Shown: positions 4,046 through 54,800, numbered from the stretch's first letter. The stretch: DNA of 64,000 nucleotides from a virus (IMGVR_UViG_3300044695_006401), one strand, 5' to 3'. The notes: generated from the sequence alone by a model not told the origin. A program made the numbers and translations.

Positions 4046-4352
4046 AATAAAAAATATGTGTATCTACCGCATTTTTGTAGTCCAAAAGAGCACCTAATAA
4101 TGGATATGGTATAGCTAATATAGTTCCATCAGGTATATTTGTCTCCAATCCACCAAATTCAGGATTAGCCATCAATATTAACCACCCAAAATAAGGTGAT
4201 CCATATTTCTCAAAACTAATCTTATCTAACCTACTTCTATTAGTTCTATAAATGTATTTTTGGTCAGATGGTCTTGTGGGTAATGTCACATAAGGAACAA
4301 CAGTTTGTTGTCCATTAACAAAAAAATTCTGATATCTATTGTAGTATTGCAT
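4035..4352 (-). CDS. LysM/tail-X-like baseplate wedge protein (T4 gp53/P2 gpX-like)
   Basis: RLDKISFEKYGSPYFGWLILMANP...IPDGTILAIP pattern in a baseplate operon. Confidence 0.7.
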   Translation of the reverse strand: MQYYNRYQNFFVNGQQTVVPYVTLPTRPSDQKYIYRTNRSRLDKISFEKYGSPYFGWLILMANPEFGGLETNIPDGTILAIPYPLLGALLDYKNAVDTHIFYYGR

Positions 4353-4353
4353 A

Positions 4354-37434: not shown

Positions 37435-37438
37435 ACTT

Positions 37439-38152
37439 ATGGTAATTGTAACTACTTTATTTAATGCTGAAAATTATATTGAAAGGTGTATTGGTTCGAT
37501 TATGGGTCAAACACATACAGATTTTAAATGTTATATAACAGATGACATCTCTACAGACAACAGTGTCTCTAAAGTTGAAAACATGATTAAAGGTGACGAT
37601 AGATTCCTTTTAATTAAAAATGAAAAAAAGATGTATCAGCCAGGAAACTACGACCAAGTAATTAGAAACAACCCAAACATTCAAGACAACGAAATAATTG
37701 TAGAAGTAGACGGAGATGATTGGTTACCTGATTCAAAAGCCTTGGAAAGAATATATAATGTTTACTCAAACCCAAATGTGTGGATAGCTAATGGAAGTTT
37801 TAAATACTCTACAGGTCAACCCGGTTTTTCTTCAAAACAAACAAATTTTGATAATCTTAGGAATGTAAGATTTACTGCATCTCATATCAGAACTTGGAGA
37901 GCTTTCCTATGGAGAAAAATTGATCAATCTGATCTGAAAGATGAGAATGGTGAATTTTGGAAAGTTACAGGTGATTTATCTTTTATGTACCCGATGCTTG
38001 AAATGTCCGGAGAAAATAGATATAGATTCATGACTGATGTAAATTATGTATATAACGAACAAAATCCCATAAATGATCATAAAGTCGATCTTAAGTTGGT
38101 AAACGAAATTGCCGATAAAATTAGAAATATGAAACCATATAAATTGTTATGA
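37439..38152 (+). CDS. GT2 glycosyltransferase
   Basis: FNAENYIERCIGSI, ITDDISTD, EVDGDDWL. Confidence 0.85.
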   Translation: MVIVTTLFNAENYIERCIGSIMGQTHTDFKCYITDDISTDNSVSKVENMIKGDDRFLLIKNEKKMYQPGNYDQVIRNNPNIQDNEIIVEVDGDDWLPDSKALERIYNVYSNPNVWIANGSFKYSTGQPGFSSKQTNFDNLRNVRFTASHIRTWRAFLWRKIDQSDLKDENGEFWKVTGDLSFMYPMLEMSGENRYRFMTDVNYVYNEQNPINDHKVDLKLVNEIADKIRNMKPYKLL

Positions 38153-38844
38153 GTCCTTTATTTTCAATTTGTATACCCACATGGGAGCAAAATGGTTTTG
38201 GGGGGGTTTATTTGTCTAAATTGCTCGACACAATTAAAACTCAAACACTCCAAGACTTTGAAGTTGTGATTTCGGACCACAGTACAACTAACCTAATACA
38301 GGATGTGGTTAAAAAGTACTCTTCTGATATTAATATAGTTTATGTCACTAACCAAGAAAAAATTGGTAATAGCCCATCCAACACCAACAACTCAATCAAA
38401 CATTCAAAAGGGAAAATTATTAAGGTGATGTTCCAAGACGATTTTTTATTTAACAATAAATCATTAGAAATGATCTCTTCTAAATTCGAAGATAATGTAA
38501 TGTGGGTTGTCAATGGGTGTAATCACACAGATTCTAATAACAGTAAGTATTGGAATTACATGGTCCCAAGTTGGAATGACTCAATATATAGAGGGATAAA
38601 CACAATAAGTTCCCCGTCCGTTTTGTCTTTTAGAAAAGATTCTAACATTCTTTTTGATGATAATCTAGTGATGCTCATGGATTGTGAGATTTATTATAAT
38701 TTTTACACTAAATACGGATTACCCGCAATAATACCCGAAACTCTTATTACGAATAGATTACATGAAAATCAAATTAGTTCCAACTATAGGTTAGACATTA
38801 ATGATGAGATAAACTATGTCATAAAAAAATATAATATCATATAA
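38149..38844 (+). CDS. GT2 glycosyltransferase
   Basis: FSICIPTW, VISDHST, MFQDDFL, MDCE. Confidence 0.85.
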   Translation: MSPLFSICIPTWEQNGFGGVYLSKLLDTIKTQTLQDFEVVISDHSTTNLIQDVVKKYSSDINIVYVTNQEKIGNSPSNTNNSIKHSKGKIIKVMFQDDFLFNNKSLEMISSKFEDNVMWVVNGCNHTDSNNSKYWNYMVPSWNDSIYRGINTISSPSVLSFRKDSNILFDDNLVMLMDCEIYYNFYTKYGLPAIIPETLITNRLHENQISSNYRLDINDEINYVIKKYNII

Positions 38845-39626
38845 TGAATATTATTAGTACAAATTTAATGGGGGGATTAGGTAACTGTCTATTTCAAATC
38901 GCAGCGGCATATGCAACATCTTTAAGGGATTCTAAAAAGTTTATCTGTCCAAAAGTTGTATCTCACGGATCACATAAACCAATAAACAATTATTTTAATA
39001 ATATTTTTAGCAGAATAGAATTTGGGTCAATACCCTCAGATATTCAGTTATACCATGAACCCCGTTTTCATTATAATGAAATACCTAATGCACATAACAA
39101 CATCATGTTATACGGATATTTCCAATCTGAAAAATATTTTAATGTTTATAGGAATGAGATTTTAAATTTGTTCTCAGCTACCAATGAAATTGAAAATAAG
39201 TTAACTACAAAATATTTCCACTTACTCCAAAAAAAAACTTGCTCAATTCACATAAGGAGGGGGGATTATGTGAGGTTGAGCGATTCCCACACGGTACAAC
39301 CAATTGACTATTATGAAAAAGCAACTAATATTATTGGTGAGGGTTGTGAGTATTTGATATTTTCAGATGATATAGAATGGTGTAAAGAAAATTTTAGTTT
39401 CCTTAAAAATACCCATTTCATAGAAGGGGACACTGATTTTGAAAATCTATATTTAATGTCAATGTGTTATCATAACATAATTGCAAATTCAACATTCAGT
39501 TGGTGGGGAGCGTGGTTAAATAAAAATGAAGATAAAAAAGTTATATGTCCATCCGATTGGTTTGGACCAATAAATAAACATTTACAAACCAAGGACATTT
39601 ATCCCACAAAATGGATTGTAATATAA
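38844..39626 (+). CDS. GT11 alpha-1,2-fucosyl/colitosyl-transferase-like
   Basis: GGLGNCLFQ, GYFQSEKYF, HIRRGDY, ANSTFSWWGAWL. Confidence 0.9.
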   Translation: MNIISTNLMGGLGNCLFQIAAAYATSLRDSKKFICPKVVSHGSHKPINNYFNNIFSRIEFGSIPSDIQLYHEPRFHYNEIPNAHNNIMLYGYFQSEKYFNVYRNEILNLFSATNEIENKLTTKYFHLLQKKTCSIHIRRGDYVRLSDSHTVQPIDYYEKATNIIGEGCEYLIFSDDIEWCKENFSFLKNTHFIEGDTDFENLYLMSMCYHNIIANSTFSWWGAWLNKNEDKKVICPSDWFGPINKHLQTKDIYPTKWIVI

Positions 39627-39638
39627 AAATTTTTTAAA

Positions 39639-40538
39639 ATGAAAGTATGTGTAGTAGGTGGTGCAGGATTTATTGGTCACCATATCGTAAAAAAGTTTTT
39701 AAGTTTAGGTCATCAAGTATTGGTAATTGATGACTTGAGCACGGGTAAATTAGAAAATATCCCAAATAACTGTGAATTTATAAAATCCGATGTTTCAGAA
39801 ATTGATATGGAAACTTTAGTCAATTATTTGGAAGGTGTTGATTTGGTGTACCACACTGCAGCCAAAGCAAGGGTACAACCTTCGATTGTAGACCCAATTT
39901 CTTTTAATAGGGCGAATGTAGATTCAACATTGAGAATTTTAGTTGCGTCACATAGGTCAAAAGTAAAACGAGTTATTTATTCAGCATCAAGTAGTGTCTA
40001 TGGTGATACTAACATATTCCCAACACCTGAAACTGCAAACCCCAACCCAATGAGTCCTTATGGATTACAAAAATTTATTGGAGAGCAATACTGTAAACTT
40101 TTTTCCGAAGTCTACAATTTAGATACGGTATCTCTTAGATATTTCAATGTTTATGGTGAAGGTATGTTAGATGAAGGGGCTTATTGTACTGTGATTGGTA
40201 TCTTTGCTAATCAATATAAACAATCTAAACATTTAACAATAACCAACGATGGTGAGCAAAAAAGAGACTTTACATATGTTGGGGATGTTGTCGAAGCAAA
40301 TTATTTAGCCGGAGTATATGAAGAATCTTTCAACGGTGATGTATTTAATGTCGGTAACGGTGACAATTATAGTATTAACGAAATTGCAGATTTATTTGAA
40401 TCAGAAAAAGTTTACAATGAACAAAGGTTAGAACCTTATATCACTTTGGCAGACAACAGTAAAATTAAAAACAAGTTGGGGTGGATTCCTAAAGGTAATG
40501 TAATATCTTGGGTGAAAAAATATAAAAAAACTTTATGA
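39639..40538 (+). CDS. NAD-dependent nucleotide-sugar epimerase/dehydratase
   Basis: GGAGFIG, SASSSVYG, YGLQK, LRYFNVYG. Confidence 0.9.
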   Translation: MKVCVVGGAGFIGHHIVKKFLSLGHQVLVIDDLSTGKLENIPNNCEFIKSDVSEIDMETLVNYLEGVDLVYHTAAKARVQPSIVDPISFNRANVDSTLRILVASHRSKVKRVIYSASSSVYGDTNIFPTPETANPNPMSPYGLQKFIGEQYCKLFSEVYNLDTVSLRYFNVYGEGMLDEGAYCTVIGIFANQYKQSKHLTITNDGEQKRDFTYVGDVVEANYLAGVYEESFNGDVFNVGNGDNYSINEIADLFESEKVYNEQRLEPYITLADNSKIKNKLGWIPKGNVISWVKKYKKTL

Positions 40539-41206
40539 AAATAGCAGTTATAACATCACATATAGGATTACCTAACCCATTGAGGGATCCTGAAATCGAG
40601 TTTGATGGGGTTGATTATTTTGCATTTGTTGACAGGCAACACGACTGCAAGATATGGAAACAAATTCCTCACATTGATTTTTCTTTAGATGAAGAATATA
40701 AGTCGAGGAGAAATGCTAAAATATATAAGGTACTGCCTAATCTTTTTTTTCCTAACTATGATTATTGGTTTTGGATGGATACCACTCACGACCTTATCAT
40801 GGATCCCTCTGAAGTTATAAAAAATTACATGGGAGATTCAGAAATAGGTCTTTGGGTCCACACATCTAGAAATTGTGCTTATCAAGAAGGAGAAGAAATA
40901 AAAAGACTTAAATATGATCATATTAATTTAGTCGACAATCAACTAAATTACTATAGATCTCAAGGGTTCCCCGAAAATTACGGATTGTTTGAATTACCTG
41001 TAAGTATTAGAAAAAATACTCATAATGTACAAAAATTAAATTTGAGATGGTGGGATCAAATTTCTAGATATTCATCAAGAGATCAGATAAGTATGCCATT
41101 TGTTATTTGGAAAACAGGTGTTGACATTAAAATTTTACCGGGGTTTTCTAATGGTGGGTTAGGAAAAAATCCGATAATGCCTCAAGTAAGAATCAAAGGT
41201 CAATAA
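40535..41206 (+). CDS. DUF616/TOD1-MUCI70-like glycosyltransferase
   Basis: RNAKIYKVLP, FWMD, HTSRNCAYQE, RDQISMPF. Confidence 0.7.
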   Translation: MKIAVITSHIGLPNPLRDPEIEFDGVDYFAFVDRQHDCKIWKQIPHIDFSLDEEYKSRRNAKIYKVLPNLFFPNYDYWFWMDTTHDLIMDPSEVIKNYMGDSEIGLWVHTSRNCAYQEGEEIKRLKYDHINLVDNQLNYYRSQGFPENYGLFELPVSIRKNTHNVQKLNLRWWDQISRYSSRDQISMPFVIWKTGVDIKILPGFSNGGLGKNPIMPQVRIKGQ

Positions 41207-41208
41207 AT

Positions 41209-42534
41209 ATGTGTAGTTTTATTTTCACAAACAAAGAAATCTCAGATGTAGATTATGTTAATTTCTTTAATAAGTTTAGAGGTCCTGACAATACAAATGT
41301 TTTTGTTAAAAACGGATATTCATTTCTACACAACTTATTGAGTATAACCGGAGAATTTAAAACACAGCCATTTGTACAAGACAACATAATTTGTCTTTAT
41401 AATGGTGAAATATATAACTATAAAGAATTTGGTGATTACAATTCAGATGGGGAATGTCTAATACCTCTATACATTAAAGACGGATACAACTTCATAAAAA
41501 AACTAGATGGAGAATTTGCTATAACTTTAGTAGATTTCAATAAAAACATAGTAATAATATCAACAGATACATTTAAAACTAAACCAATTTTTTATTCTTT
41601 AACTGACGGTATCGCAACATCATCATATAGTGACCCTTTAAAAAAATTAGGATACACAAACATCTTAAAGATGGATCCAAACACAACTTTGATTGTCGAC
41701 CTAAAAACAAGGACTCCATTGGAAAAAAGATTAGTTCATAATTTTGATGTGTCGAACCAAAACAAAGATACTTTTGAGGATTGGGTTAGTGCGTTTGAGA
41801 AATCAATTAAAAAAAGAACTAACGGAATTAGAGAAAAAATATTTATAGGTCTTAGTGGTGGTTATGATAGTGGGGCTATTTGTTGTGAATTACTAAACCA
41901 AAATGTAAAATTCAAATCATATACCGTAATCGGCACAGAAAACTCAAATATTCTTAATCAGAGATTTTCATTACTAAATAATAATGAGCAACAATCTCTA
42001 ACTAAAAACACTGATGAGATCAATGTTGCATACAATTATATAAAAAATAATACAGAAACATTTAAATTTGTTACCTATTCAAACTCAAGTGATTACAACG
42101 AATATTGGTTATCTTTAATTGATGATAATGGTGCAAAACATTTATCACATGTTTGTAGTAACGCAATTAAAGATGGAAAAAAAATTCTATTGTCTGGACA
42201 AGGTGCTGATGAAATTTTTTCAGATTATGGTTTTGGTGGTATTAAGAAATATAACCACAGTAATTTTGGTGGACTTTTTCCTGAAGATTTAAAAAGCGTT
42301 TTTCCTTGGCCAAGTTTTTTTAATAGTTCGATGGAATCTTATTTGGCGAAAGAAGAGTATGTTGCTGGTTCATATGGAATTGAATCAAGGTACCCCTTTT
42401 TAGACTTAGAGGTTGTGCAAGAATTTCTTTGGTTGAAACCTGAATTAAAGAATTCACATTATAAGTCAGTTCTTTATTATTATTTAAAAAAATATAACTT
42501 TCCATTTACGGAAAATGAAAAAATAGGATTCTAA
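41209..42534 (+). CDS. asnB: Asparagine-synthetase-like glutamine amidotransferase
   Basis: N-terminal Cys2, RGPD, YNGEIYN, LSGGYDS, SGQGADE, RYPFLD. Confidence 0.85.
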   Translation: MCSFIFTNKEISDVDYVNFFNKFRGPDNTNVFVKNGYSFLHNLLSITGEFKTQPFVQDNIICLYNGEIYNYKEFGDYNSDGECLIPLYIKDGYNFIKKLDGEFAITLVDFNKNIVIISTDTFKTKPIFYSLTDGIATSSYSDPLKKLGYTNILKMDPNTTLIVDLKTRTPLEKRLVHNFDVSNQNKDTFEDWVSAFEKSIKKRTNGIREKIFIGLSGGYDSGAICCELLNQNVKFKSYTVIGTENSNILNQRFSLLNNNEQQSLTKNTDEINVAYNYIKNNTETFKFVTYSNSSDYNEYWLSLIDDNGAKHLSHVCSNAIKDGKKILLSGQGADEIFSDYGFGGIKKYNHSNFGGLFPEDLKSVFPWPSFFNSSMESYLAKEEYVAGSYGIESRYPFLDLEVVQEFLWLKPELKNSHYKSVLYYYLKKYNFPFTENEKIGF

Positions 42535-43178
42535 TGAAAATTAAAACTGTCGATATTTGCATTACAACCTACAATAGAAATGATAGGTTAATAGAGACCT
42601 TAGATATATTATCCAAACAAACCAACACGGATTTTAATCTAATAGTTAACGATGACGGAAATAAAACAATTATAAACCCCAACGACCATCCGATCATTAC
42701 AAAATATATTTGGAACAAAGATGATGGGTACCATAGAGTCGCCAGATTCAATGAATCGGTTTCTTTATGTGTTTCTCCGTTCATAATTTTATTAGACGAC
42801 GATTGTATTCCTGTGGATAGTAATTTTGTACAATCTCATGTTGATGTATTGAATACATCTGATGTTTGTAAGGGAAAAATTAGATTTCCAAATGGTGATT
42901 TAGCATCCGGATGGTTTAGTACCGCAAATTTAGGTATTAGAAAAAAGGTTATTGACGAAATCGGTCTCTTTGATAATAATTTTGATGGTCACTATGGTCA
43001 TGAAGATCAGGATTTAGGTAATAGACTCAATAAGGAGAACTATGTATCTTTTGATGGGTCAAATGGTACTATGGTTAATCATGGTACTGAGATGTACGCC
43101 AATGGGGATAGATCAGACAGTATTGTGGGACATAACACAAGATATTTTATATCAAAATGGGGGTACGACCCTAGATAG
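42534..43178 (+). CDS. GT2 glycosyltransferase
   Basis: ITTYNR, VNDDG, LLDDDC, GHEDQD. Confidence 0.85.
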   Translation: MKIKTVDICITTYNRNDRLIETLDILSKQTNTDFNLIVNDDGNKTIINPNDHPIITKYIWNKDDGYHRVARFNESVSLCVSPFIILLDDDCIPVDSNFVQSHVDVLNTSDVCKGKIRFPNGDLASGWFSTANLGIRKKVIDEIGLFDNNFDGHYGHEDQDLGNRLNKENYVSFDGSNGTMVNHGTEMYANGDRSDSIVGHNTRYFISKWGYDPR

Positions 43179-43187
43179 TTTTTTATA

Positions 43188-44018
43188 ATGAGTAATCTGA
43201 TATTTTATTGTTCGGGAGGTTTGGGTAATAGGTTAAGCCCGTTTTTAAACATAAAAAACATTTTTGATTATAATATTAAGTTGGTTTGGCCAAAAACCAT
43301 GAGATTAATGTGTGATTTTCAAGATATTTTTGAAAATAAAAATATCGGGTCACTTAGTTTTACCGAATTAGATAATTTAGTTGATGTTGAAAATTTTCAT
43401 GGTAGTGAGGGTGGATTAATTGCGTCAGAATATGAATTCAAAATTAACTCCATAGACTCTCTTTTGAATATGAGTAAAAGAAGTTTTCCTAAACCCGTAC
43501 ATTTATTTAATATTAATAATCTCAGTCACCAAAACACTATTGTTTTTTTTAACGATCTTATTGGTCATGTCGATAAAGAAACCGTCAAAGAAAATTTTTT
43601 TAAGTTAAAACCTAAAAAAGAAATAATTGATAAAATAAATGATTTACAAAGTTATTTAGAAATAAATAAAGACACAGTAGGAATCCACGCAAGAGGTACA
43701 GATTTCATAAATGAAAAACTTGAATCGTACTTTCCTATAATAGATGAAGAACTAAGAAATGGTAATAATATATTTTTTTGTTCCGACGACCCCGATTGGG
43801 AAAAAAATATAATTGTAAAATACCCAATGATCAAAGTGAGACCCCAAAAAAATAATGTTTACAAATCTGATATTAATTCAAACTATTCTTGTAATGTTGT
43901 AACACCTTTAGACGCTACTATTGACGCATACATAGATATGGTATTACTGTCAAAAAGTAACTTTAAACATTTCAACCCTAAAAGTTCGTTCGCAAGGTTA
44001 GTAAACATAATTCAATAA
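43188..44018 (+). CDS. Fucosyltransferase-fold (NodZ/GT23-like) transferase
   Basis: GGLGNRL, GIHARGTD, FFCSDD, DMVLLSK. Confidence 0.7.
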   Translation: MSNLIFYCSGGLGNRLSPFLNIKNIFDYNIKLVWPKTMRLMCDFQDIFENKNIGSLSFTELDNLVDVENFHGSEGGLIASEYEFKINSIDSLLNMSKRSFPKPVHLFNINNLSHQNTIVFFNDLIGHVDKETVKENFFKLKPKKEIIDKINDLQSYLEINKDTVGIHARGTDFINEKLESYFPIIDEELRNGNNIFFCSDDPDWEKNIIVKYPMIKVRPQKNNVYKSDINSNYSCNVVTPLDATIDAYIDMVLLSKSNFKHFNPKSSFARLVNIIQ

Positions 44019-44040
44019 CTCTAAGTCAAATAGATAATAC

Positions 44041-44069
44041 TTGTGTTTATTTTATGGGGTTTATATGTT
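44041..44069 (+). promoter_or_regulatory. Possible internal sigma70-like promoter before the colitose cassette
   Basis: TTGTGT-N17-TATGTT in the only sizeable gap (81 bp) of the island. Confidence 0.35.
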
Positions 44070-44099
44070 ATTTTGAAATAAAAAAATATACAGTAAAAT

Positions 44100-44864
44100 A
44101 TGAAATGTTTGACAATTAGTAGAGGTGAAGACGGGTTCGGATCGCAACTATTTAGTATAATATCAGGTTTAGCATACTGCGACAAACACAAAATACCGTA
44201 TAAACACTCCCCTATTCAAAACATAAAACTACTTAGTTCAAAAAATTTTCTTAACGAAGATTTAATTAGATCTAATGAGTTTGTATTTTCTATTATTAAT
44301 AATATTGATATTTCTAAAACTGAGGATTTAGATTGTACGGTTAAACCATTCTGTCATGATTTAATTTATAATGAAGGTTCTGAAAATTATTTTACAGAAA
44401 ACTTTTTAGAAAAAATTAAATCCTCACATACCTTTAACTTTGGAGGGGACCAAACCCGTACTATATCGATACACATCAGGCGTGGTGAAGATATTTTTGA
44501 GGAAGACAAACCTTATAGATGGATAGAAAGTGAAACATATCAAAAGTTGATAGAATTTATTTTGGAAAAAGAATCTGATTGCAAAATAAAAATCTTCAGC
44601 TGGGGTGAGTCGGGAATCCAATTGAGTGACCCAAGAATTGAGTATTATACTTCTGATTCGGGTGGAAAATTTATGGGTGACTTTATAAAGATGGTGACTT
44701 CTGATATATTAATAGTGGGGTCAAGTACTTTTAGTATTTCTGCGGGATTTCTAAACAAGAACATGGTTTTATCACATACTAAATTAATGAAATTAAATAA
44801 TACCCCCATACCAAGAATATGGGAAAATAACTTCAATACATATTTTAACGGTATTGATATATAA
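44100..44864 (+). CDS. Fucosyltransferase-fold transferase
   Basis: DGFGSQL, IHIRRGED, SDILIVGSSTFS. Confidence 0.65.
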   Translation: MKCLTISRGEDGFGSQLFSIISGLAYCDKHKIPYKHSPIQNIKLLSSKNFLNEDLIRSNEFVFSIINNIDISKTEDLDCTVKPFCHDLIYNEGSENYFTENFLEKIKSSHTFNFGGDQTRTISIHIRRGEDIFEEDKPYRWIESETYQKLIEFILEKESDCKIKIFSWGESGIQLSDPRIEYYTSDSGGKFMGDFIKMVTSDILIVGSSTFSISAGFLNKNMVLSHTKLMKLNNTPIPRIWENNFNTYFNGIDI

Positions 44865-44883
44865 ACTTAATAAAAAACAAAAA

Positions 44884-45810
44884 ATGGGTAGGATATTAAT
44901 TACAGGGTCTAATGGGTTAGTTGGTTCGGCATTAAGAAAACAACTAGGTGACGATCATGTGTACCATACAAAAGAAGAGGTGGATCTTTTAGACTATAAA
45001 AAAACTCATGATTATTTTTCTTATCATGTAAAACATAGTAATGTGGATACAATAATTCATTGTGCCGCAAAAGTCGGAGGTGTTCAAGCAAACCTATCCG
45101 ATAATAAAGGATTTTTTATAGATAATTTCGTAATAAACAATAATGTGATGGAGACTTCATTTAGAAATGAAGTTCCCAACTTTGTGAATTTACTTTCGAC
45201 TTGTATATTTCCTGAGAAAAACATAGAGTTTCCAATGAAACCTCAGGATGTTGACAAGGGTAAACCTCATCCATCAAACGAAGGTTATGCTTACGCTAAA
45301 AGATTAGCAGGATACGAAACAAACACTATTAAAAAGGTTCTTAAATCTAATTGGGTTTCAGTTGTACCTACGAATGTATACGGAATACACGATAACTTCA
45401 ACTTATTTGGTGGACATATGATTCCAGCTATGATCCATAGAGCGTATGAATCAAAAAAAAATAAAGAAAAAATGATAATATGGGGCGATGGTTCACAATT
45501 AAGACAAGTAATTCATTCTGATGATTTAGCAAAATTAATTTTATGGTCATTAGATAATTGGAAAAGTGACTATCCCTTTATGGCGGTAAATCCGAATGAG
45601 CACTCAGTTTTGGAAATATCTAATTTAATTTGTGAAAACTTCAATATTTCGAAAGATGATATACTGTTTGATAACACAAAACCGACGGGTCAATTGAGGA
45701 AACCTGCAATTTCGGACGCACCTTCGAATTTTGAATTTACGACATTATCGGATGGAATTAAAACAACAATAGATTGGTTTATTCAAAACTACGATAAATT
45801 AAGAAAATAA
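44884..45810 (+). CDS. colC: GDP-4-keto-6-deoxyhexose epimerase/reductase (Fcl/ColC family)
   Basis: GSNGLVG, HCAAKVGG, LSTCIFP, YAYAK, PTNVYG; likely start 44884. Confidence 0.8.
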   Translation: MGRILITGSNGLVGSALRKQLGDDHVYHTKEEVDLLDYKKTHDYFSYHVKHSNVDTIIHCAAKVGGVQANLSDNKGFFIDNFVINNNVMETSFRNEVPNFVNLLSTCIFPEKNIEFPMKPQDVDKGKPHPSNEGYAYAKRLAGYETNTIKKVLKSNWVSVVPTNVYGIHDNFNLFGGHMIPAMIHRAYESKKNKEKMIIWGDGSQLRQVIHSDDLAKLILWSLDNWKSDYPFMAVNPNEHSVLEISNLICENFNISKDDILFDNTKPTGQLRKPAISDAPSNFEFTTLSDGIKTTIDWFIQNYDKLRK

Positions 45811-45816
45811 GACATT

Positions 45817-46971
45817 ATGAGTATAAAATTAGTAAGTGACACTATCAATAAAGAAGATATAAATTCTTTAATTGAGTGGTTAGGACAAGACGAGATTCCG
45901 AGACTAACAAAAGGAGATCTAACTTGGGAATTAGAATCTAAATGGGCGAAAAAAATAGGAACCAAATATTCGGTTTATCTTAATTCAGGTTCCTCCGCAA
46001 TTCTTTTAGCGTTAGCGGCTTTACAACACACCAACAAATTAAAAAATAATAAAGTAATTGTACCAGGGTTAAGTTGGGCAACCGATGTTAGTTCACCTAT
46101 GATATTAGGTATGGAACCAATTTTATGTGATTGTAATCTTGAGGATCTTTCTTGTGATTTAGATCACTTGGAAAAATTGTTTATTCAACATAACCCATCT
46201 ACATTCATTTTAGTCTCACCATTAGGTTTAGTTCCTGATATGAAAAAAGTTCTTGACCTATGTGAGAAATACAATGTGATCCTACTGGAGGATGTATGCG
46301 AGAGCATGGGATCAAAGTATAATGAAAAATACCTCGGGTCTTTTGGCTTTGCATCATTTTTTTCGATGTATTTTGGACATCATTTAAGTACAATAGAGGG
46401 TGGGTTTATTAATACGGACGACGAAGATTTTTATTATTCATTATTGATGATGAGAAGTCATGGTTGGGATAGAGACCTACCAAAAAGAATCCAAAATAAA
46501 TTACGAAACGAAAATAAAATTAGCGAATTTGATTCACTATATACATTTTATTTACCAGGATTTAATCTAAGATCAACGGATCTACAAGCGTTTATTGGGT
46601 TAAGAGCAATAGATAAATTAGATGACTATACTGAAAAAAGGAACAAAAATTTTCAATTGTATAAATCTTCAATAAATGTCAACCAACTGAATATAACAGA
46701 TAGACCAACAGACTTTATTTCTAATTTTGCATATCCCATTGTAAATAAAAATAGATTAAAAATCATCGAAAAACTTATTAAGGATAATATTGAAGTTAGG
46801 CCTTTAATTGCTGGTGATATGTCAAAAAAACCTATGTGGATTAAAAATTATGGTGAGGTTAATTTACCTAATTGTCAATTGATCAATGAGTATGGGTTTT
46901 ATATACCAAACCATCAGGATCTAACATCAGAACAAATAAATTTAATTTCAAACATAGTAAATAATGAGTAA
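45817..46971 (+). CDS. colD: GDP-4-keto-6-deoxy-D-mannose 3-dehydratase (ColD-like PLP enzyme)
   Basis: NSGSSA, EDVCESMG, SMYFGHHLSTIEGG (His at the Schiff-base Lys position), RSHGWDRDLP. Confidence 0.8.
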   Translation: MSIKLVSDTINKEDINSLIEWLGQDEIPRLTKGDLTWELESKWAKKIGTKYSVYLNSGSSAILLALAALQHTNKLKNNKVIVPGLSWATDVSSPMILGMEPILCDCNLEDLSCDLDHLEKLFIQHNPSTFILVSPLGLVPDMKKVLDLCEKYNVILLEDVCESMGSKYNEKYLGSFGFASFFSMYFGHHLSTIEGGFINTDDEDFYYSLLMMRSHGWDRDLPKRIQNKLRNENKISEFDSLYTFYLPGFNLRSTDLQAFIGLRAIDKLDDYTEKRNKNFQLYKSSINVNQLNITDRPTDFISNFAYPIVNKNRLKIIEKLIKDNIEVRPLIAGDMSKKPMWIKNYGEVNLPNCQLINEYGFYIPNHQDLTSEQINLISNIVNNE

Positions 46972-47944
46972 AAAGATTGCATTAATAACAGGTATAAATG
47001 GTCAGGACGGATCTTACTTATCTGAGTTATTATTAGAAAAAGGATATGAAGTGCATGGCACATTAAAAAGAAACTCTGTTTCTGAAAATCAAACTTCTCG
47101 TTTGGATAATGTATTTGACAAATTAATATTGCATTACGCAGACTTAACGGATTTATCATCACTAATAAGAGTTATTAGTGAAATTAAACCCGATGAGGTT
47201 TATAATTTAGCAGCACAATCGCATGTTAGAATTTCTTTCGATCAACCGATATACACTGCAAATGTTACGGGGTTAGGTACTCTGAATATTTTAGAAGCGG
47301 TTAAACTTGTAAATCCTGAAATTAAAATTTATCAAGCATCTTCATCCGAGATGTTCGGTAATTCAATAGATAAGGATGGACTTCAAAGAGAAACAACACC
47401 GATGAATCCAGTTTCACCTTATGGTTGTGCCAAAGTATTCTCATATAATATTTGTAGAAATTATAGAAACGCATATAACATGAAAATATGGAATGGTATT
47501 TTATTTAACCATGAGTCACCAAGAAGAGGTACAAATTTTGTAACAAATAAAGTGGTTAAGGCGGCAGTTAGAATCAGTTTAGGTCTACAAGAAAAATTAC
47601 ACATAGGTAATTTAGAAGCATCCAGAGATTGGGGTCATGCTAAAGATTATGTTGAAGCTATGTGGTTAATGTTACAATCGGACAACCCTAATGATTATGT
47701 GTGTGCGACAGGAGTTTCACACACGGTAAAAGATTTATGTGAGTATACCTTTAGTACTTTAGGTTTAGAATATAAAGATTATGTTGTTATTGACGAGAAA
47801 CACTTTAGGCCCGAAGAACTTGAAAATCTTAAGGGGGACTCTTCAAAATTAACAAATGATTTAGGTTGGAAACCAAAATACACTTTTGAATCTATGTTAG
47901 ATGAAATGATTGAGTATTGGTTAAACTACTATAAAAACAAATAA
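46964..47944 (+). CDS. gmd: GDP-mannose 4,6-dehydratase
   Basis: TGINGQDGSYL, LAAQSHV, QASSSEMFG, PYGCAK, FNHESPRR, RDWGHA. Confidence 0.95.
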   Translation: MSKKIALITGINGQDGSYLSELLLEKGYEVHGTLKRNSVSENQTSRLDNVFDKLILHYADLTDLSSLIRVISEIKPDEVYNLAAQSHVRISFDQPIYTANVTGLGTLNILEAVKLVNPEIKIYQASSSEMFGNSIDKDGLQRETTPMNPVSPYGCAKVFSYNICRNYRNAYNMKIWNGILFNHESPRRGTNFVTNKVVKAAVRISLGLQEKLHIGNLEASRDWGHAKDYVEAMWLMLQSDNPNDYVCATGVSHTVKDLCEYTFSTLGLEYKDYVVIDEKHFRPEELENLKGDSSKLTNDLGWKPKYTFESMLDEMIEYWLNYYKNK

Positions 47945-47951
47945 TAAATAA

Positions 47952-48692
47952 ATGACAAGAAAAAGAACAATCCAAACACCTGAGGAATCATTAATTCCAA
48001 AAACTATATCAAAAAAAGATTTTATTAATTCAGTCATTAAAAGAAAACAAAAAAATAAATTTTTATCAGATAACCAAAAAGAGTATTACGATATCTTAAT
48101 TAATAACCAAATCACCATATGTTCAGGACCTGCAGGTGTTGGTAAAAGCTATATTTCCATGAGGGCGGCAGTTGACTTACTTATGGACCCAAATAACTCT
48201 TATGAAAAGATAATCATTGTAAGACCCGCAGTTGAAGCTGAGGAAAAATTAGGTTCTCTACCTGGAAACTTAGAAGAAAAGTTAGACCCGTACATTTTTC
48301 CATCCTACTATCTACTTAATAAGATCATAGGAAAAGAGGCTAGAGAAAAATTAAAAGAATCTGAAATTATTGAGGTATTCGCTTTAGCATATATGAGGGG
48401 AATGAATATCGATAACTCGATTTTAATTTTTGAAGAGGCCCAAAACGCAACACCTAATCAAATGAAACTACTATTGACAAGAATCGGGTTTAATAGTAAA
48501 TTTTTTATATCGGGAGATTTAGAACAGACTGATAGGTATAAAGATAAAAAACAATCCGGATTGTACGACGCATTACAACGATTTCAAAATATTAACGATG
48601 TCGGCGTGTATGATTTCAGAAACGCTAAAAATGTGAGAAATCCACTTATTAGTAAAATATTAGAAAAATATGACGAAGAGAGTAGGAATTGA
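47952..48692 (+). CDS. phoH: PhoH-family ATPase
   Basis: GPAGVGKS, RPAVE, AYMRG, EEAQN, GDLEQ. Confidence 0.93.
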   Translation: MTRKRTIQTPEESLIPKTISKKDFINSVIKRKQKNKFLSDNQKEYYDILINNQITICSGPAGVGKSYISMRAAVDLLMDPNNSYEKIIIVRPAVEAEEKLGSLPGNLEEKLDPYIFPSYYLLNKIIGKEAREKLKESEIIEVFALAYMRGMNIDNSILIFEEAQNATPNQMKLLLTRIGFNSKFFISGDLEQTDRYKDKKQSGLYDALQRFQNINDVGVYDFRNAKNVRNPLISKILEKYDEESRN

Positions 48693-49329
48693 GGTTAACG
48701 GTGTATTAAGAGATACTTTAGGAAAGTTTACGCAACTGTATGAGAAACATTTTATAGAGGAGCAAGACTCAGAATCATTAGGTAAAACTTTTGATTTGGA
48801 CATGTCCGGTAACACTTTTGAACATAATGAAGAAAATGAATTTAAGTATGAAATATTATCAGATGTAACCAGTCTAAATTTAATGGACCATTTTAAATTT
48901 AAAAATAACGATGAACTTTATAGTTTCATGTATGAAGATTTTGTAATGCAAATATTTGGTCACGCCGGATCATCAGAAACATTTACTTTTAATGAGTTAA
49001 ATAATCTTTATCTTGACCACCGTGATTCATGTGATGTGATCATAATCTCAGATGAAATAGGGAGGTCTAAACCAGCGACATTATTTTTTTTATCAAAATT
49101 CGGGTCATTAGTTGAATCGGTAATATTCTATTCCATGTCAACCAAAAACAGATTGTGGGATAATGTCGATGTGTTACTGACATCAAATCCTGAAAATATA
49201 ACAAATGCTCCGTCAGATAAAATAGTTGTAAAATATATTACAGAATATAATAAATCAGTTAAGTGTAACTACGAGATTTCGTCTTTAGGTGAATTTGACG
49301 AATTACTAAAAAAATTAAAATTATGTTAG
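48670..49329 (+). CDS. 5'(3')-nucleotidase (NT5C)-like HAD-fold protein with a degenerate motif I
   Basis: RVGIEVNGVLRD (ExN in place of DxD). Confidence 0.5.
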   Translation: MTKRVGIEVNGVLRDTLGKFTQLYEKHFIEEQDSESLGKTFDLDMSGNTFEHNEENEFKYEILSDVTSLNLMDHFKFKNNDELYSFMYEDFVMQIFGHAGSSETFTFNELNNLYLDHRDSCDVIIISDEIGRSKPATLFFLSKFGSLVESVIFYSMSTKNRLWDNVDVLLTSNPENITNAPSDKIVVKYITEYNKSVKCNYEISSLGEFDELLKKLKLC

Positions 49330-49631
49330 ATTTTTTAGGAGAAAAATACTATATAGACATTGATGAATTAGAACATCAAGTTAGTATGACTAAATCCAAA
49401 ATACCTTTACCTAAAAAAGGTAAAAAAGAGACTGAAGAAAAATCAGAGGAACCTGAACAACAAATAAGTGTTACAAGATACGACACATTCAAATTTTTAA
49501 TTGAGGTCGTTTTGACTGAAAGAGAGGAAATGGATGAGAATTTAGGTATTCATAGTGCTAAAAATTTATCTTTACCATTTAAATTTGCATTTAATACATT
49601 ATTAATGAATAAAATAATAAAACATTTATAA
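49323..49631 (+). CDS. Hypothetical protein
   Basis: 102 aa coupled ORF. Confidence 0.6.
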   Translation: MLDFLGEKYYIDIDELEHQVSMTKSKIPLPKKGKKETEEKSEEPEQQISVTRYDTFKFLIEVVLTEREEMDENLGIHSAKNLSLPFKFAFNTLLMNKIIKHL

Positions 49632-49634
49632 AAC

Positions 49635-50699
49635 ATGGAATTAGAAAAAATACAAAAGGTTGAGGGTTCGATTGAGAACCTTAAATCAAGAAAATCGAGA
49701 ATCTACTTTATGGTGCAAGACACCAAAGGAAATCCAAAGGCATCTGTTAGATATATTTACGACATAGCACTAACTTTATTAAAAAATGGATTCAACCCTA
49801 CAATTATTCACGAAACTACAGATTATACAGGTGTATCAGAATGGTTAGATGAAGAATACATGAAAATTCCACATCTTCCGATAGACGGTCAAAACTTAGC
49901 AATTTCACCTGAAGATTTTATTGTTATACCTGAACTATACTCACATGTGATGGAACAAATAAAAAATTTCCCATGTGCTAAAATTGTTTTGTGTCAAGCA
50001 TATGACTATATGTTAGAGACATTATCGCCAGGTACGACATGGTCCCAATACGGGTTTACTAAATGTATCACAACATCAGATTTCCAAAAAAAATACATTT
50101 CAGAAATTATGAGATCAGGTAGTTTTGATGTATTAAATGTAAATATTCCTTCAGTTTTCAAGAAAAAAGAAAGACCGTCAAAACCAATTATCGCAATCCA
50201 CACCAGAGAACCAAGAGACACTGCAAAAATAATAAAAAGTTTTTACCTTAAATATCCACAATTTAGATGGATCACATTTAGAGATATGAGAGGAATAAAA
50301 CAAGATGATTTCGCAACCTTTTTACAAGAATCGTATCTTTCCATTTGGGTTGATAATGAAAGTGGGTTTGGTACATTCCCTTTAGAGTCTATGATTTCAG
50401 GAACCCCTGTAATTGGAAAAATCCCTAATTTAAAACCTACATGGATGACTGAAGAAAACGGGTTATGGGTTAATAATTACAATGAGATTATTGATGTTGT
50501 TGCAAACTTTACTCAAAATTGGTTAGAGGATAATATATCAGAAACTCTTCATGTTAATATGTCATTAACAGGAGAAGAATACCAAGACCAAGATAAATTC
50601 GAATCATCTGTTGTTGAATTATTTGATGGGTATTTAAAAACCAGATCTCAAATCTTTGAAGAACAATTAGAAAAAATAAAAGTATCAGAAAATAATTAA
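49635..50699 (+). CDS. GT-B glycosyltransferase-like protein
   Basis: VIPELY, ESGFGTFPLESMISGTPVIG. Confidence 0.7.
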   Translation: MELEKIQKVEGSIENLKSRKSRIYFMVQDTKGNPKASVRYIYDIALTLLKNGFNPTIIHETTDYTGVSEWLDEEYMKIPHLPIDGQNLAISPEDFIVIPELYSHVMEQIKNFPCAKIVLCQAYDYMLETLSPGTTWSQYGFTKCITTSDFQKKYISEIMRSGSFDVLNVNIPSVFKKKERPSKPIIAIHTREPRDTAKIIKSFYLKYPQFRWITFRDMRGIKQDDFATFLQESYLSIWVDNESGFGTFPLESMISGTPVIGKIPNLKPTWMTEENGLWVNNYNEIIDVVANFTQNWLEDNISETLHVNMSLTGEEYQDQDKFESSVVELFDGYLKTRSQIFEEQLEKIKVSENN

Positions 50700-50701
50700 T
50701 T

Positions 50702-51514
50702 ATGGAAAAAAATAAATTTGATGTTTCGGTAATCTTACCAGTAAATACATCTATGACAAAAGATTTTGAAGACTTATTCAGTAAGTCAGTTAAATCAGTA
50801 GAAAACCAAATTATTGGTATAACTGAATTAATCGTAGTACACTCAACCGAAGAAAAATTAAAGTCGTTTTTACAATCATATGATTTTAATGGTATTAATG
50901 TAAAATTAGTAGAGAACAATGGTTCATTTGATTTTGCATCTCAGGTAAATTTAGGAGTTAATGAATCGAACGGTGAATGGGTTTCTATTTTAGAGTTTGA
51001 TGATGAGTATTCCTCAATATGGTTTAAAAGTGTAGATAGATATGTAAAATCATATGGTAATGAGGTTGATGCGTATCTTCCGTTGGTTATTGATATTGAC
51101 GATAAAGGGGTGTTCGCAGGGTTTACTAATGAAGCAACTTTCGCAGTAAGCATGAATTCGGAAATGGGAATCCTTAGTAACGACTTATTAATGACATACC
51201 AAAACTTCCAATCAAGTGGTATGGTTATAAGAAAAAATACTTTTAATGAAAATGGTGGTTTCAAACCTTCAATTAAGTTAACTTTTGTATATGAGTTCCT
51301 TTTAAGATTGACATACAACTCAGCTAAAATAATGACAATTCCAAGAATTGGTTACAAACATATGAACATGAGAGAAGGGTCTATTTTTTGGAATTACAAA
51401 TATGGTCAACCTAGTCTGACTGAGAACGAAATTAAATTTTGGTTAGAGTCGGCAAAGAAAGAACATTTTTTCACTTCTGATAGAGAAATAAAATATGTAT
51501 CAGAAACGGTTTAA
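50702..51514 (+). CDS. GT2 glycosyltransferase
   Basis: VSVILPV, VNLGV, ILEFDDEY, YEFLLRL. Confidence 0.8.
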   Translation: MEKNKFDVSVILPVNTSMTKDFEDLFSKSVKSVENQIIGITELIVVHSTEEKLKSFLQSYDFNGINVKLVENNGSFDFASQVNLGVNESNGEWVSILEFDDEYSSIWFKSVDRYVKSYGNEVDAYLPLVIDIDDKGVFAGFTNEATFAVSMNSEMGILSNDLLMTYQNFQSSGMVIRKNTFNENGGFKPSIKLTFVYEFLLRLTYNSAKIMTIPRIGYKHMNMREGSIFWNYKYGQPSLTENEIKFWLESAKKEHFFTSDREIKYVSETV

Positions 51515-52257
51515 TGTCATTAGGTGTTGAATCAATCAATCCACAAGACGAAAAGCAAAAGACGAAAGCAAAAAATAAAAATTATTTTGATGTTCGTGAA
51601 GAAGAAGCGGTTAAAAATTATATAGTTGCCGAAACTTACGAGGAAAAAGAAAAAATATATAATACATACCTTCGTGAACCACTCGACAAAATGATCGAGT
51701 CTATTATACGAAGGTATAAATTATATAGAAAAGACATGGATTATAATGATGTACATAGTGATACTCATTCATTTTTAATGACCAAAGTGGATAAATTCAA
51801 ACCCGCTAAAAATAAAAAAGCATATTCATATTTTGGTACGATTTGTAAAAATTATCTAATGGGCCAAATTTTAAAAGACCAAAAAGAAACCAATCGTAAA
51901 ATTTCATATGAAGACATTTCCTCAACTTTAGAAAATAGACCCGATATGGTTTATTACATGGAGTTTGAAAAAATAGACGCCGAAAAAATTATAGCGATCT
52001 TTTTAAAAGACCTCAAATTATATGTATCAACAAATGTTGATAATGAGAACGAACTAAAATTAGGGTACGCTCTAATAGAGCTTTTTGATAATTATGGGAA
52101 TATTTTTATTGGTAATGATAACAATAAATTTAATAAAAATATAGTGTTGCTGTCGTTAAGAGAAATGACAAATTTGAACACAAAAGAGATTAGAATTTAC
52201 TTGAAAAAATTCAAAGTTTTATACTTAGAGACACTGAAAAAGATTCATAATGAATAA
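51514..52257 (+). CDS. gp55: Phage sigma factor (T4 gp55-like late sigma)
   Basis: NYF at the N-terminus; DKFKPAKNKKAYSYFGTICKNYL resembles the gp55/sigma region 2 FDP.K..N.FAYFT. Confidence 0.65.
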   Translation: MSLGVESINPQDEKQKTKAKNKNYFDVREEEAVKNYIVAETYEEKEKIYNTYLREPLDKMIESIIRRYKLYRKDMDYNDVHSDTHSFLMTKVDKFKPAKNKKAYSYFGTICKNYLMGQILKDQKETNRKISYEDISSTLENRPDMVYYMEFEKIDAEKIIAIFLKDLKLYVSTNVDNENELKLGYALIELFDNYGNIFIGNDNNKFNKNIVLLSLREMTNLNTKEIRIYLKKFKVLYLETLKKIHNE

Positions 52258-52269
52258 TTAAGTTAATAA

Positions 52270-52276
52270 TATTTAT
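52270..52276 (+). promoter_or_regulatory. Late motif TATTTAT (spike operon)
   Basis: 4 nt upstream of the ATG. Confidence 0.6.
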
Positions 52277-52280
52277 TATT

Positions 52281-52646
52281 ATGAACAGACAAAGAAAAAA
52301 AGAAATACTACTCAACAAAGACTCCGTTTTGGGGTTAATGCAAGAAATCTATAACGAATTAGTTGAGCAAAGATCTACAGCGATAAGAATACAAAATAAA
52401 ATGTTAGGTCTTTTGAAAGACGCCGAAGACATGACAGTAATTGGACCGGTTATCAAAGAACAACAAAAAATAATTAATGATACCATAGAAAAGAAATTGT
52501 CTTTGTCAAAATTACAATCATCTATATGGGAAAAGTCAAACAATAGTAAAGAAGATTCATTCACATTATCAGACATGGATGAAGACACTTTACAAACTCT
52601 TATATCAAAAGATGTAAGTAAAGATTCTGATAAGTACAAACTTTAA
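52281..52646 (+). CDS. Hypothetical helical late protein
   Basis: 121 aa coiled-coil; TATTTAT 4 nt upstream. Confidence 0.6.
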   Translation: MNRQRKKEILLNKDSVLGLMQEIYNELVEQRSTAIRIQNKMLGLLKDAEDMTVIGPVIKEQQKIINDTIEKKLSLSKLQSSIWEKSNNSKEDSFTLSDMDEDTLQTLISKDVSKDSDKYKL

Positions 52647-54595: not shown

Positions 54596-54800
54596 AAAAG
54601 ATTCTGACAAAATATTAGAAATTCTGATGGATTATAAAAATTCATCAAATAAAGATTTAGAATTTGCCTTAGATTTTATTGCAAAAGATTTTTATAAAAC
54701 AAGAGATTTAATTGTGAAACTAACAAAACATTTAGATTCTTCTGAAAACAGTTATAATAAATTAAAAGAAGAGTACAAAAAAAGAATGAATAATGTCTAA
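54579..54800 (+). CDS. Small coiled-coil protein
   Basis: MESHTKKDSDK...; likely ATG at 54579. Confidence 0.55.
   Translation: MESHTKKDSDKILEILMDYKNSSNKDLEFALDFIAKDFYKTRDLIVKLTKHLDSSENSYNKLKEEYKKRMNNV

Follow-up and report, generated by a model that had tools for sequence, protein, structure and literature searches.

Colitose is an O-antigen sugar found in a few Gram-negative pathogens. The colitose pathway of Escherichia coli O55 and O111, Salmonella O35, Yersinia pseudotuberculosis and Vibrio cholerae O139 consists of Gmd, ColD (WbdK) and ColC (WbdJ), and E. coli O55 additionally encodes the GT11 colitosyltransferase WbgN. The CDP-3,6-dideoxyhexose pathway of E1 (RfbH/AscC) and E3 likewise proceeds by PMP-dependent deoxygenation at C3 with an enzyme that has His in place of Lys. 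E1- and SpnQ-type enzymes need an Fe-S cluster and an E3-type partner, whereas ColD works without Fe-S (PMC8987622).

Here we describe a cassette of a large lake-water phage that clusters, like the enterobacterial and Vibrio colitose loci, the same three enzyme families in one run, with a GT11-fold transferase alongside as in E. coli O55. It lies at 44100-47944 of the window, by which we mean the whole stretch of 64,000 nucleotides that was analysed. As in the E. coli pathway, a His188 dehydratase without Fe-S is combined with a reductase carrying Ser/Tyr/Lys and Cys/His residues; it differs in that the ColD is 32% identical, the reductase belongs to another clade of the Fcl family and Gmd is shorter (326 aa vs 372 aa). 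Unlike the bacterial colitose loci, the carrier is a lytic-type large phage, and manB/manC, wzx, wzy and lipid-carrier genes were not found alongside the cassette. An earlier note on this DNA had proposed that the phage makes colitose via Gmd, ColD and ColC. All in-silico tests proposed in that note support this reading with colitose as the probable product, and we put the probability that the cassette diverts host GDP-mannose to GDP-L-colitose (GDP-3,6-dideoxy-L-xylo-hexose) at about 0.7. In the literature searched, we found no report of colitose synthesis by a virus.

Organization of the cassette

The cassette is composed of four intact, co-oriented and tightly packed genes in the order GT11-fold transferase, Fcl-family epimerase/reductase, His-type PLP/PMP 3-dehydratase and Gmd. 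These and the relevant upstream features are:

38844-39626, + strand: GT11 glycosyltransferase, 260 aa, third candidate transferase (Pfam GT11, 106.4 bits)
43188-44018, + strand: NodZ/FUT8/O-FucT-like glycosyltransferase, 276 aa, second candidate transferase for a GDP-6-deoxy-L-hexose
44019-44099, no strand: 81-bp intergenic gap upstream of the cassette, with TTGTGT-N17-TATGTT
44100-44864, + strand: GT11-fold glycosyltransferase, 254 aa, candidate colitosyl/fucosyl-transferase (Pfam GT11, motifs, fold)
44884-45810, + strand: Fcl-family NADPH epimerase/reductase, 308 aa, putative GDP-L-colitose synthase, ColC-like (Pfam, NCBIfam, PDB, catalytic residues, clade)
45817-46971, + strand: ColD-type PLP/PMP-dependent sugar 3-dehydratase, 384 aa (Pfam DegT, PDB, His188, AF2/Foldseek)
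46964-47944, + strand: GDP-mannose 4,6-dehydratase Gmd, 326 aa (TIGR01472, Pfam GDP_Man_Dehyd, catalytic residues)

The PLP enzyme is flanked by gmd and, upstream, by the Fcl-family reductase, just as the earlier note had it; 6 nt separate the reductase stop from the ColD start, and the last 8 nt of the ColD gene are shared with gmd. The block was also correctly said to follow the only large gap, as all other intergenic gaps within 32977-54595 are of 23 bp or less. The promoter-like string described in this gap is present at 44041-44069. A sigma-70 promoter at this site was rejected, since the string matches 7 of 12 consensus positions and does not reach the threshold of the scan, and since the gap itself is not conserved, being missing in two relatives (L007 and L032). 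The sigma-70 scan returned 37 sites vs 39.5 in shuffles, i.e. no enrichment, and as a promoter the string carries no statistical weight.

Gmd passed the NCBIfam equivalog TIGR01472 (424.7 bits vs a cut-off of 415), matched Pfam GDP_Man_Dehyd with 414.1 bits and is 47% identical to Gmd of E. coli O111, with the catalytic residues S127-x-E129, Y153 and K157 (S/T-x-E and YxxxK) in place. As the other SDR of the island, at 39639, is GalE/WbgU-like, Gmd is its sole 4,6-dehydratase. A mannose-1-phosphate guanylyltransferase was searched for in the 166-kb record (~57% complete) and was not found, and we assume that GDP-mannose is supplied by the host. Twenty sequencing runs are on record as holding the cassette, all of lake-water DNA and none of RNA. 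When the cassette was compared by megablast with the phages of GenBank, in a set from which the window's near records were left out, no match was obtained, nor was there one by tblastn with the ORF at 54793-56382. Relatives of the cassette were sought through protein searches rather than nucleotide matching, and the homology of its proteins is much too strong to be due to chance (E 9e-56 to ColD and 2.6e-127 to the Gmd model).

The dehydratase

All three motifs quoted earlier for the dehydratase were found in the product of 45817-46971, namely SMYFGHHLSTIEGG (containing His188), EDVCESMG and RSHGWDRDLP. In the alignment, His188 (codon CAT, 46378-46380) falls on His188 of E. coli ColD, the very residue replaced in the mutant chains H188N and H188K, and on the catalytic Schiff-base Lys of the perosamine synthase of E. 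coli O157 (NKT vs GHH). The His is therefore on the catalytic position, as had been supposed, and it is shared by 118 of the 121 sequences of an alignment made of the 116 nearest 50%-cluster representatives and references. Position 187 is Gly in the window vs Ser in ColD. The family-conserved residues W87, T89, C161, R213, H215, F244 and R275 are common to the window and E. coli ColD and different in perosamine synthase.

Sequence search of the PDB placed ColD (2gms, E 8.9e-56, 192.9 bits) ahead of E1 (111.2 bits) and perosamine synthetase (96.5 bits), and the Pfam DegT match scored 187.9 bits. With the AF2 model (pLDDT 97.5), Foldseek ranks 1-12 were all ColD chains (TM 0.87-0.89). The product is a ColD-type His 3-dehydratase whose nearest solved relative, by sequence and by fold, is E. 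coli ColD, which stands on a long basal branch of the tree.

Aminotransferases followed slightly below ColD in the fold search (TM 0.84-0.86) and homologues are labelled 'aminotransferase' in public records, so that this protein of DegT/aminotransferase fold might be read as an aminotransferase or an inactive relic, with GDP-perosamine-like amino sugars or GDP-fucose only as the output. We consider this highly improbable, as His replaces the Schiff-base Lys in the window and throughout nearly all of the alignment, which is mostly of nearest family representatives; GDP-perosamine synthase identity was rejected on this residue. Besides, ColD had no transaminase activity under conditions where SpnQ had it (review PMC8987622), and PDB entry 3gr9 (H188K/S187N) documents a ColD converted into an aminotransferase. 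The gene is intact and shows 62-95% conservation across many phage genomes, as would not be expected of a relic.

E1-type identity was rejected as well. RfbH of NCBIfam is the best model match of the dehydratase, yet it scores 171.6 bits vs a cut-off of 423. As only one of the six Cys (104, 106, 113, 149, 161, 353) comes after His188, the protein has no E1-like C-x-C-x7-C cluster and no group of four Cys near the cofactor region, in agreement with the absence of the Cys cluster claimed earlier. Apart from the [2Fe-2S] motif, the phage also differs from the E1/E3 pathway in having neither an E3 reductase nor a CDP-glucose 4,6-dehydratase, the other SDR of the island being GalE-like.

The reductase

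The most likely start of the reductase is the ATG at 44884, which gives the length of its homologues (308 aa), with the TTG at 44854 as the alternative. It matched Pfam Epimerase (132.9 bits) and, below the cut-off of 500, NCBIfam Fcl (190.7 bits), and its top PDB matches were GDP-L-fucose synthases (191 bits). Residues S105, C107, Y135, K139 and H178 correspond to S107, C109, Y136, K140 and H179 of E. coli Fcl, all five being kept, and the same pattern is common to the window reductase, E. coli Fcl and E. coli ColC. With the E. coli O111 homologue WbdJ representing characterised ColC, the window reductase is 31% identical to E. coli Fcl (150 bits) and 30% to ColC (112 bits). In the ML tree, E. 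coli ColC falls on a long branch within the canonical Fcl clade and the window reductase in a separate clade; grouping E. coli ColC with the phage reductase clade was not rejected by the AU test (p 0.22).

The window reductase falls in a clade of 12 rows (support 100) that is coupled to ColD: a ColD-type gene adjoins the reductase in 11 rows and lies ~2 kb away in the remaining one. The sister of this clade is viral, with 28 rows that lie next to Gmd and for the most part have no ColD gene. Two reductase clades fill the cassette slot, and both are ColD-adjacent throughout. Two unrelated reductase types exchange beside the same ColD clade (in the window, L007, L032 and L134), which points to a shared function. 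We infer that the reductase is a GDP-L-colitose synthase, ColC-like in function, whose sequence does not establish orthology with characterised ColC. Two columns separate the ColD-coupled from the Gmd-only reductases, Fcl L102 to F and E210 to Q, and they are leads only, because E. coli ColC has Val at Fcl 102 and keeps Glu at Fcl 210.

The Phe and Gln at these columns in the ColD-adjacent clades hint at altered substrate handling, and the window clade is separate from canonical Fcl and, in the ML tree, also from E. coli ColC. As stereochemistry is not readable from sequence, the GDP-3,6-dideoxyhexose made might not be that of L-colitose but, for instance, a D-configured one formed by C4 reduction without C5 epimerisation, or one arising through the opposite facial selectivity. 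Such a product is in our view unlikely, since the window and both phage reductase types retain the Cys/His epimerisation pair of Fcl, and the neighbouring GT10, GT11 and NodZ-like families use GDP-beta-L-fucose-like donors.

Linkage and distribution among phages

Through the dehydratase we found 36 IMG/VR loci, in 35 of which Gmd follows directly or within ~0.8 kb and in 32 of which a reductase precedes the dehydratase. In the phage lineage of the window, ColD-Gmd forms a fixed core beside phoH, and the reductase and transferases are exchanged. The view of the block as a swappable module needs to be narrowed, in this lineage, to the reductase and transferases.

The functions of the cassette are also present in the cultured cyanophages S-CAM7 (KU686212.1) and ACG-2014f, T4-like aquatic phages in which Gmd, an Fcl-type reductase, a His-type dehydratase and GT11 occur together. 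Their dehydratase has FSFYFGHHMTTVEGG and is ~30% identical to that of the window. They differ in having gmd first, in their host Synechococcus and in their reductase, a canonical Fcl with 48% identity to E. coli Fcl and 28% to the window's. The annotation of these genomes reads 'putative CDP-4-keto-6-deoxy-D-glucose-3-dehydrase' or 'aminotransferase' and names no colitose pathway. Judging from sequence, many aquatic phages, cultured cyanophages among them, carry the cassette without its having been recognised, its underlying chemistry being already known.

About 52 of 80 related viral loci have Gmd and an Fcl-type reductase without the 3-dehydratase and should therefore stop at fucose; their Gmd is 72-83% identical to that of the window and the sister-clade reductase 37-43%, and their reductases keep Glu at E. 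coli Fcl 210, in contrast to the Gln of the ColD-adjacent clades. These common pairs would fit a division of labour in which Gmd and the reductase make GDP-L-fucose while the dehydratase acts on a CDP-, dTDP- or UDP-4-keto-6-deoxyhexose of the host. Close homologues of the dehydratase are publicly named 'CDP-6-deoxy-D-xylo-4-hexulose-3-dehydrase', and many cellular His-type members of the family adjoin a different SDR (23-35% identical to Gmd) with no Gmd within 6 kb, so homology alone does not fix GDP as the nucleotide. GDP is suggested by gene context, i.e. by the adjacency to Gmd: the dehydratase gene overlaps gmd and lies between gmd and the reductase in nearly all phage relatives. A non-GDP substrate is quite improbable on these grounds, and also because the Fe-S motif and E3-type partner that E1/SpnQ-type enzymes require are missing, the island has no other 4,6-dehydratase, and the ColD-adjacent reductase clades are separate from the Gmd-only viral clade.

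Candidate transferases

The three fucosyltransferase-fold enzymes that had been counted in the island are real, being the GT11 at 38844, the NodZ/FUT8-like protein at 43188 and the GT11-like protein at 44100. The last of these matched Pfam GT11 (PF01531) marginally, with 24.0 bits vs a cut-off of 23.9, and has the HxRRGD-type motif HIRRGE (residue 125) and SSTFS (208) in common with the firm GT11 of the window. The best AFDB-Swiss-Prot match of its AF2 model (pLDDT 93.2) was the alpha-1,2-colitosyltransferase WbgN of E. coli O55 (Q8VQ46, E 3.4e-8, TM 0.56), followed by alpha-1,2-fucosyltransferases (FUT1/FUT2), and its best PDB matches were NodZ, FUT1, FUT8 and POFUT1. WbgN and related enzymes take both GDP-colitose and GDP-fucose (PMC12723683, PMC11987014), and either may be the donor here. 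The protein at 43188 scored below the cut-off with Pfam NodZ (19.5 bits), and its nearest Atlas clusters (features 0.96; structure TM 0.63-0.78) carry NodZ, FUT8_N_cat or O-FucT. Homologues of the 38844 GT11 with 37-56% identity occur near the cassette in many related loci, and the gene directly upstream of the reductase in relatives is repeatedly of a GT10 or GT11 fucosyltransferase family. The glycosyltransferase array of the island is soluble, with zero predicted membrane segments.

Proposed pathway

From the gene identities, catalytic residues, folds and conserved linkage observed here, we propose that Gmd would oxidise and dehydrate GDP-mannose to GDP-4-keto-6-deoxymannose. The PMP form of the His188 enzyme would then make a Schiff base at C4 and remove the C3 hydroxyl to give GDP-4-keto-3,6-dideoxymannose, with PMP restored from glutamate and with neither an Fe-S cluster nor an E3 reductase required. 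The Fcl-family enzyme would epimerise C5 by the acid-base pair Cys107/His178 and reduce C4 with NADPH by Ser105/Tyr135/Lys139. The L-sugar would be passed on by the GT11-fold enzyme encoded upstream, and perhaps also by the NodZ-like enzyme and the GT11 further upstream, to an acceptor that the other soluble glycosyltransferases of the island would build. Some GDP-L-fucose may arise too, given that the dehydratase competes for its intermediate with a complete Fcl-type reductase.

Biological significance

Tentatively, and with less than even odds, we suggest that colitose and/or fucose is placed by soluble glycosyltransferases onto structural proteins of the phage and not onto host LPS, that widespread lake and marine phages may have a virion glycan capped by a 3,6-dideoxy sugar, and that the ColD-adjacent reductases with Gln for Fcl Glu210 could have evolved separately from enterobacterial ColC as dedicated colitose synthases. 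If the colitose reading is true, freshwater T4-like phages, huge phages and marine cyanophages would commonly carry a 3,6-dideoxyhexose pathway as a mobile accessory module, and the labels 'aminotransferase' and 'CDP-...-3-dehydrase', as well as the fucose-pathway label, would be wrong in public annotation. Glycans of the virion or of the infected-cell surface may then bear rare sugars that affect adsorption, superinfection, grazing and lectin recognition. These cassettes would be natural experiments on which Fcl-type enzymes can serve as colitose synthases, and the cultured S-CAM7 would offer a tractable system for testing colitose synthesis by a phage and its effects.

The virus and its glycan gene run

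The window belongs to a 166-kb IMG/VR virus record with an estimated completeness of about 57%, a GC content of about 31% and an even composition throughout the region. Its major head protein shares 42-46% identity with the counterparts from Flavobacterium phage immuto, Microcystis phage Mel-JY01 and an uncultured huge phage, which places the source virus, as judged from sequence, among the large T4-like aquatic phages. T4-like relatives cover only about 55% of this head protein, in two pieces, pointing to a sizeable insertion or extension. A single densely packed gene run occupies 32977-54595 on the plus strand and includes all but the last of the genes listed here:

44100-44864, plus strand, GT11-like transferase, 254 aa, intact gene
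44884-45810, plus strand, Fcl-family reductase, 308 aa, intact gene
45817-46971, plus strand, ColD-type dehydratase, 384 aa, intact gene
46964-47944, plus strand, Gmd, 326 aa, intact gene
from 47952, plus strand, phoH, directly after gmd
59145-60971, minus strand, major head protein, 608 aa, aligning with related T4-like head proteins

Starting the reductase instead at TTG 44854 would lengthen it by 10 codons; the homologues listed range from 306 to 318 aa, and nearly all have 308. Near-identical cassette DNA was present in 20 lake-water metagenome runs from 20 studies, against no RNA run on record carrying it, and the promoter proposed upstream of the cassette found no support. Elsewhere in the island, 39639-42534 encodes a GalE/WbgU-like 4-epimerase, a TOD1/MUCI70-like glycosyltransferase and an AsnB-like glutamine amidotransferase, a block kept as a unit in the related viral loci L007 and L032 whose product may be an amidated uronic-acid or similar residue.

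The dehydratase is of the ColD type

The 384-aa product scores as a DegT-family PLP enzyme (187.9 bits) and contains all three motifs quoted in the earlier note. Its best matches among solved structures were four E. coli ColD sequences (E 8.9e-56, 192.9 bits), compared with 111 bits for E1 and 96 bits for perosamine synthetase. The first His of its GHH motif occupies the column of ColD His188, as had been proposed. The alignment leaves no ambiguity, since wild type and the H188N and H188K mutant chains differ at precisely this column. By coincidence the residue is number 188 in the phage protein as well (codon 46378-46380). With E. coli O111 (ColC, ColD) and E. coli O157 (Per, Fcl) as reference O-antigen genes, the catalytic Lys of the O157 perosamine synthase (Per) fell in the same column as the phage His188. 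Across 121 aligned sequences, comprising the 116 nearest 50%-identity cluster representatives and the references, His stood there in 118, and W87, T89, C161, R213, H215, F244 and R275 are conserved in the family, common to E. coli ColD and different in Per. The protein has six Cys without the four-Cys arrangement of the E1 and SpnQ [2Fe-2S] cluster, in agreement with the earlier reading. The twelve best PDB matches of its AlphaFold model (pLDDT 97.5) were all ColD chains (TM 0.87-0.89), with aminotransferases close behind, as expected within one fold family.

The dehydratase family is broad: at E up to 1e-30 it comprises 567 clusters of 50% identity. Many cellular members adjoin a non-Gmd SDR with no Gmd nearby, several such clades stand close to the phage clades in the ColD tree, and the phage enzyme is only 32% identical to E. 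coli ColD, which sits on a long branch. The proposed GDP specificity of the phage enzyme therefore rests on the invariable coupling to Gmd and not on homology to E. coli ColD. The 326-aa Gmd itself scored above the curated equivalog cut-off (424.7 against 415 bits), and since the only other SDR of the island, at 39639, is GalE/WbgU-like, Gmd is the sole 4,6-dehydratase available. No ManC-type gene was found in the 166-kb record, so the host presumably supplies the GDP-mannose.

Assignment of the reductase

The best solved relatives of the reductase were GDP-L-fucose synthases (191 bits), and its score of 190.7 fell far short of the Fcl equivalog cut-off of 500. At E. coli Fcl positions S107, C109, Y136, K140 and H179 it retains Ser, Cys, Tyr, Lys and His, so epimerisation plus reduction would be expected. 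E. coli ColC keeps the same five residues, and pairwise scores for the phage enzyme did not favour E. coli ColC over E. coli Fcl.

For the trees, Fcl-family sequences were labelled by their gene neighbours. The dehydratase served as seed for 36 viral loci and Gmd for 80, and a dehydratase alignment brought in 80 bacterial and archaeal loci. The window reductase fell in a 12-row clade with support 100 (type A); 11 of its members directly adjoin a ColD-type gene, and for the remaining one such a gene is about 2 kb away. A second clade, type B, supplies the reductase of most phage relatives. It has 27 rows at support 100, shares about 30% identity with type A and takes in two Acidobacteria; 23 of its members are adjacent to ColD, and the other 4 have a ColD gene within about 2 kb. 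Type C, the sister clade of type A, comprises 28 viral rows whose genes adjoin a Gmd 72-83% identical to that of the window, mostly with no ColD within 5 kb; these are presumably genuine fucose synthases. Two alignment columns set the ColD-adjacent clades apart from type C and canonical Fcl. Fcl E210 is replaced by Gln in all three ColD-adjacent clades (A, B and a Nitrospira group; Q208 in the window), and L102 by Phe in the two phage ones (F100 in the window), while the Gmd-only viral clade and canonical Fcl retain Leu and Glu. In E. coli ColC the L102 column holds Val and the E210 column Glu. This enzyme formed a long branch within the canonical Fcl clade, and moving it to the phage clade was not rejected by the AU test (p 0.22). 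The proposal that the reductase works as ColC draws on its linkage to ColD; membership of the characterised ColC lineage is possible.

Conservation and exchange of the cassette

The best 120 matches of the dehydratase among 5.8 billion proteins were 77-95% identical, the largest contig measuring 301 kb. Related viral loci nearly always keep the order reductase, ColD, Gmd, phoH, with varying glycosyltransferases upstream; the gene immediately 5' of the reductase is often GT10 or GT11, both fucosyltransferase families. The window ColD and Gmd are closest to the type-B-carrying loci L001, L003 and L004 (79-86% and 78-88% identity), and its type-A reductase is closest (70%) to those of L041, L165 and L174, loci with a ColD of only 50-54% identity. 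The ColD tree scatters the window and loci L007, L032 and L134 through a clade otherwise paired with type B, so the reductase has been exchanged on more than one occasion next to the same ColD, which argues that types A and B serve the same step. In the mosaic cassette of the window the junction lies at or near the 6-nt spacer 45811-45816. A related cassette in L044-L046 runs Fringe-like GT, two unknown ORFs, GT11, type-A reductase, ColD and Gmd. The phage backbone around it is a different one, which has ThaI-like, SprT-like, PG_binding and holin genes but lacks phoH. The swappable module of the earlier note is accordingly borne out for the reductase, the transferases and the cassette between backbones; ColD-Gmd is a fixed core in this lineage.

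Other gene arrangements were also seen among the related loci. A 3-dehydroquinate-synthase-like gene lies directly upstream of the reductase in L024 (6120-7127), two tandem Gmd paralogues (58-60% identical) surround a type-C reductase in L160-L164 and L176, and L004, L005, L028 and L034 have, at about 3840-4866 in the same glycan island, a further DegT-family gene that is only distantly related (23-26% identical).

Candidate transferases

The 44100 protein reached Pfam GT11 only at threshold (24.0 against 23.9) and has HIRRGE and SSTFS motifs in common with the firm GT11 at 38844. Its model (pLDDT 93.2) matched the fucosyltransferases NodZ, FUT1, FUT8 and POFUT1 in the PDB and, in AFDB-Swiss-Prot, first the E. 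coli alpha-1,2-colitosyltransferase Q8VQ46 (E 3.4e-8) and then alpha-1,2-fucosyltransferases. The 43188 protein resembles NodZ/FUT8/O-FucT clusters. WbgN, which uses GDP-colitose, also accepts GDP-fucose, and both sugars were transferred by enzymes annotated for one or the other (PMC12723683, PMC11987014); the donor is therefore not readable from the transferase family. A crude hydropathy scan found no membrane segments in the island proteins of 34960-52646, and no wzx/wzy-like gene was found in the island.

Relation to known systems

The chemistry predicted for the phage cassette is that of the enterobacterial colitose pathway (PMC8987622). We found no paper on a virus-encoded colitose or 3-dehydrase pathway, the literature matches concerning O-antigens, receptors and lectins, in a search that covered only a minority of subscription papers. 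GenBank already holds the gene set in the cultured Synechococcus phage S-CAM7 (KU686212.1, 162097-165951; 4082-7936 of locus L206) as the consecutive genes Gmd, "GDP-L-fucose synthetase", "putative CDP-4-keto-6-deoxy-D-glucose-3-dehydrase" and GT11, a fucose/CDP-dehydrase annotation of the pathway. In S-CAM7 and ACG-2014f, the latter with about 50 GenBank records carrying a dehydratase homologue, the reductase is of the canonical Fcl type and the ColD-like gene of the His type (FSFYFGHHMTTVEGG), the S-CAM7 dehydratase carrying FGHH. A canonical-Fcl-type reductase also adjoins a ColD homologue in the uncultured huge phage LR756502.1. An adenylylsulfate kinase lies two genes downstream of the S-CAM7 cassette.

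The gene block of the earlier note is confirmed, with its His188 and missing Fe-S motif, and its reading as a colitose cassette is supported. It is a known kind of pathway and not a new kind of system. What this analysis adds is the phylogeny of the reductase, the exchange of reductase types and the cyanophage case. The best explanation of the cassette's product is GDP-L-colitose, possibly with GDP-L-fucose, at a probability of about 0.7.
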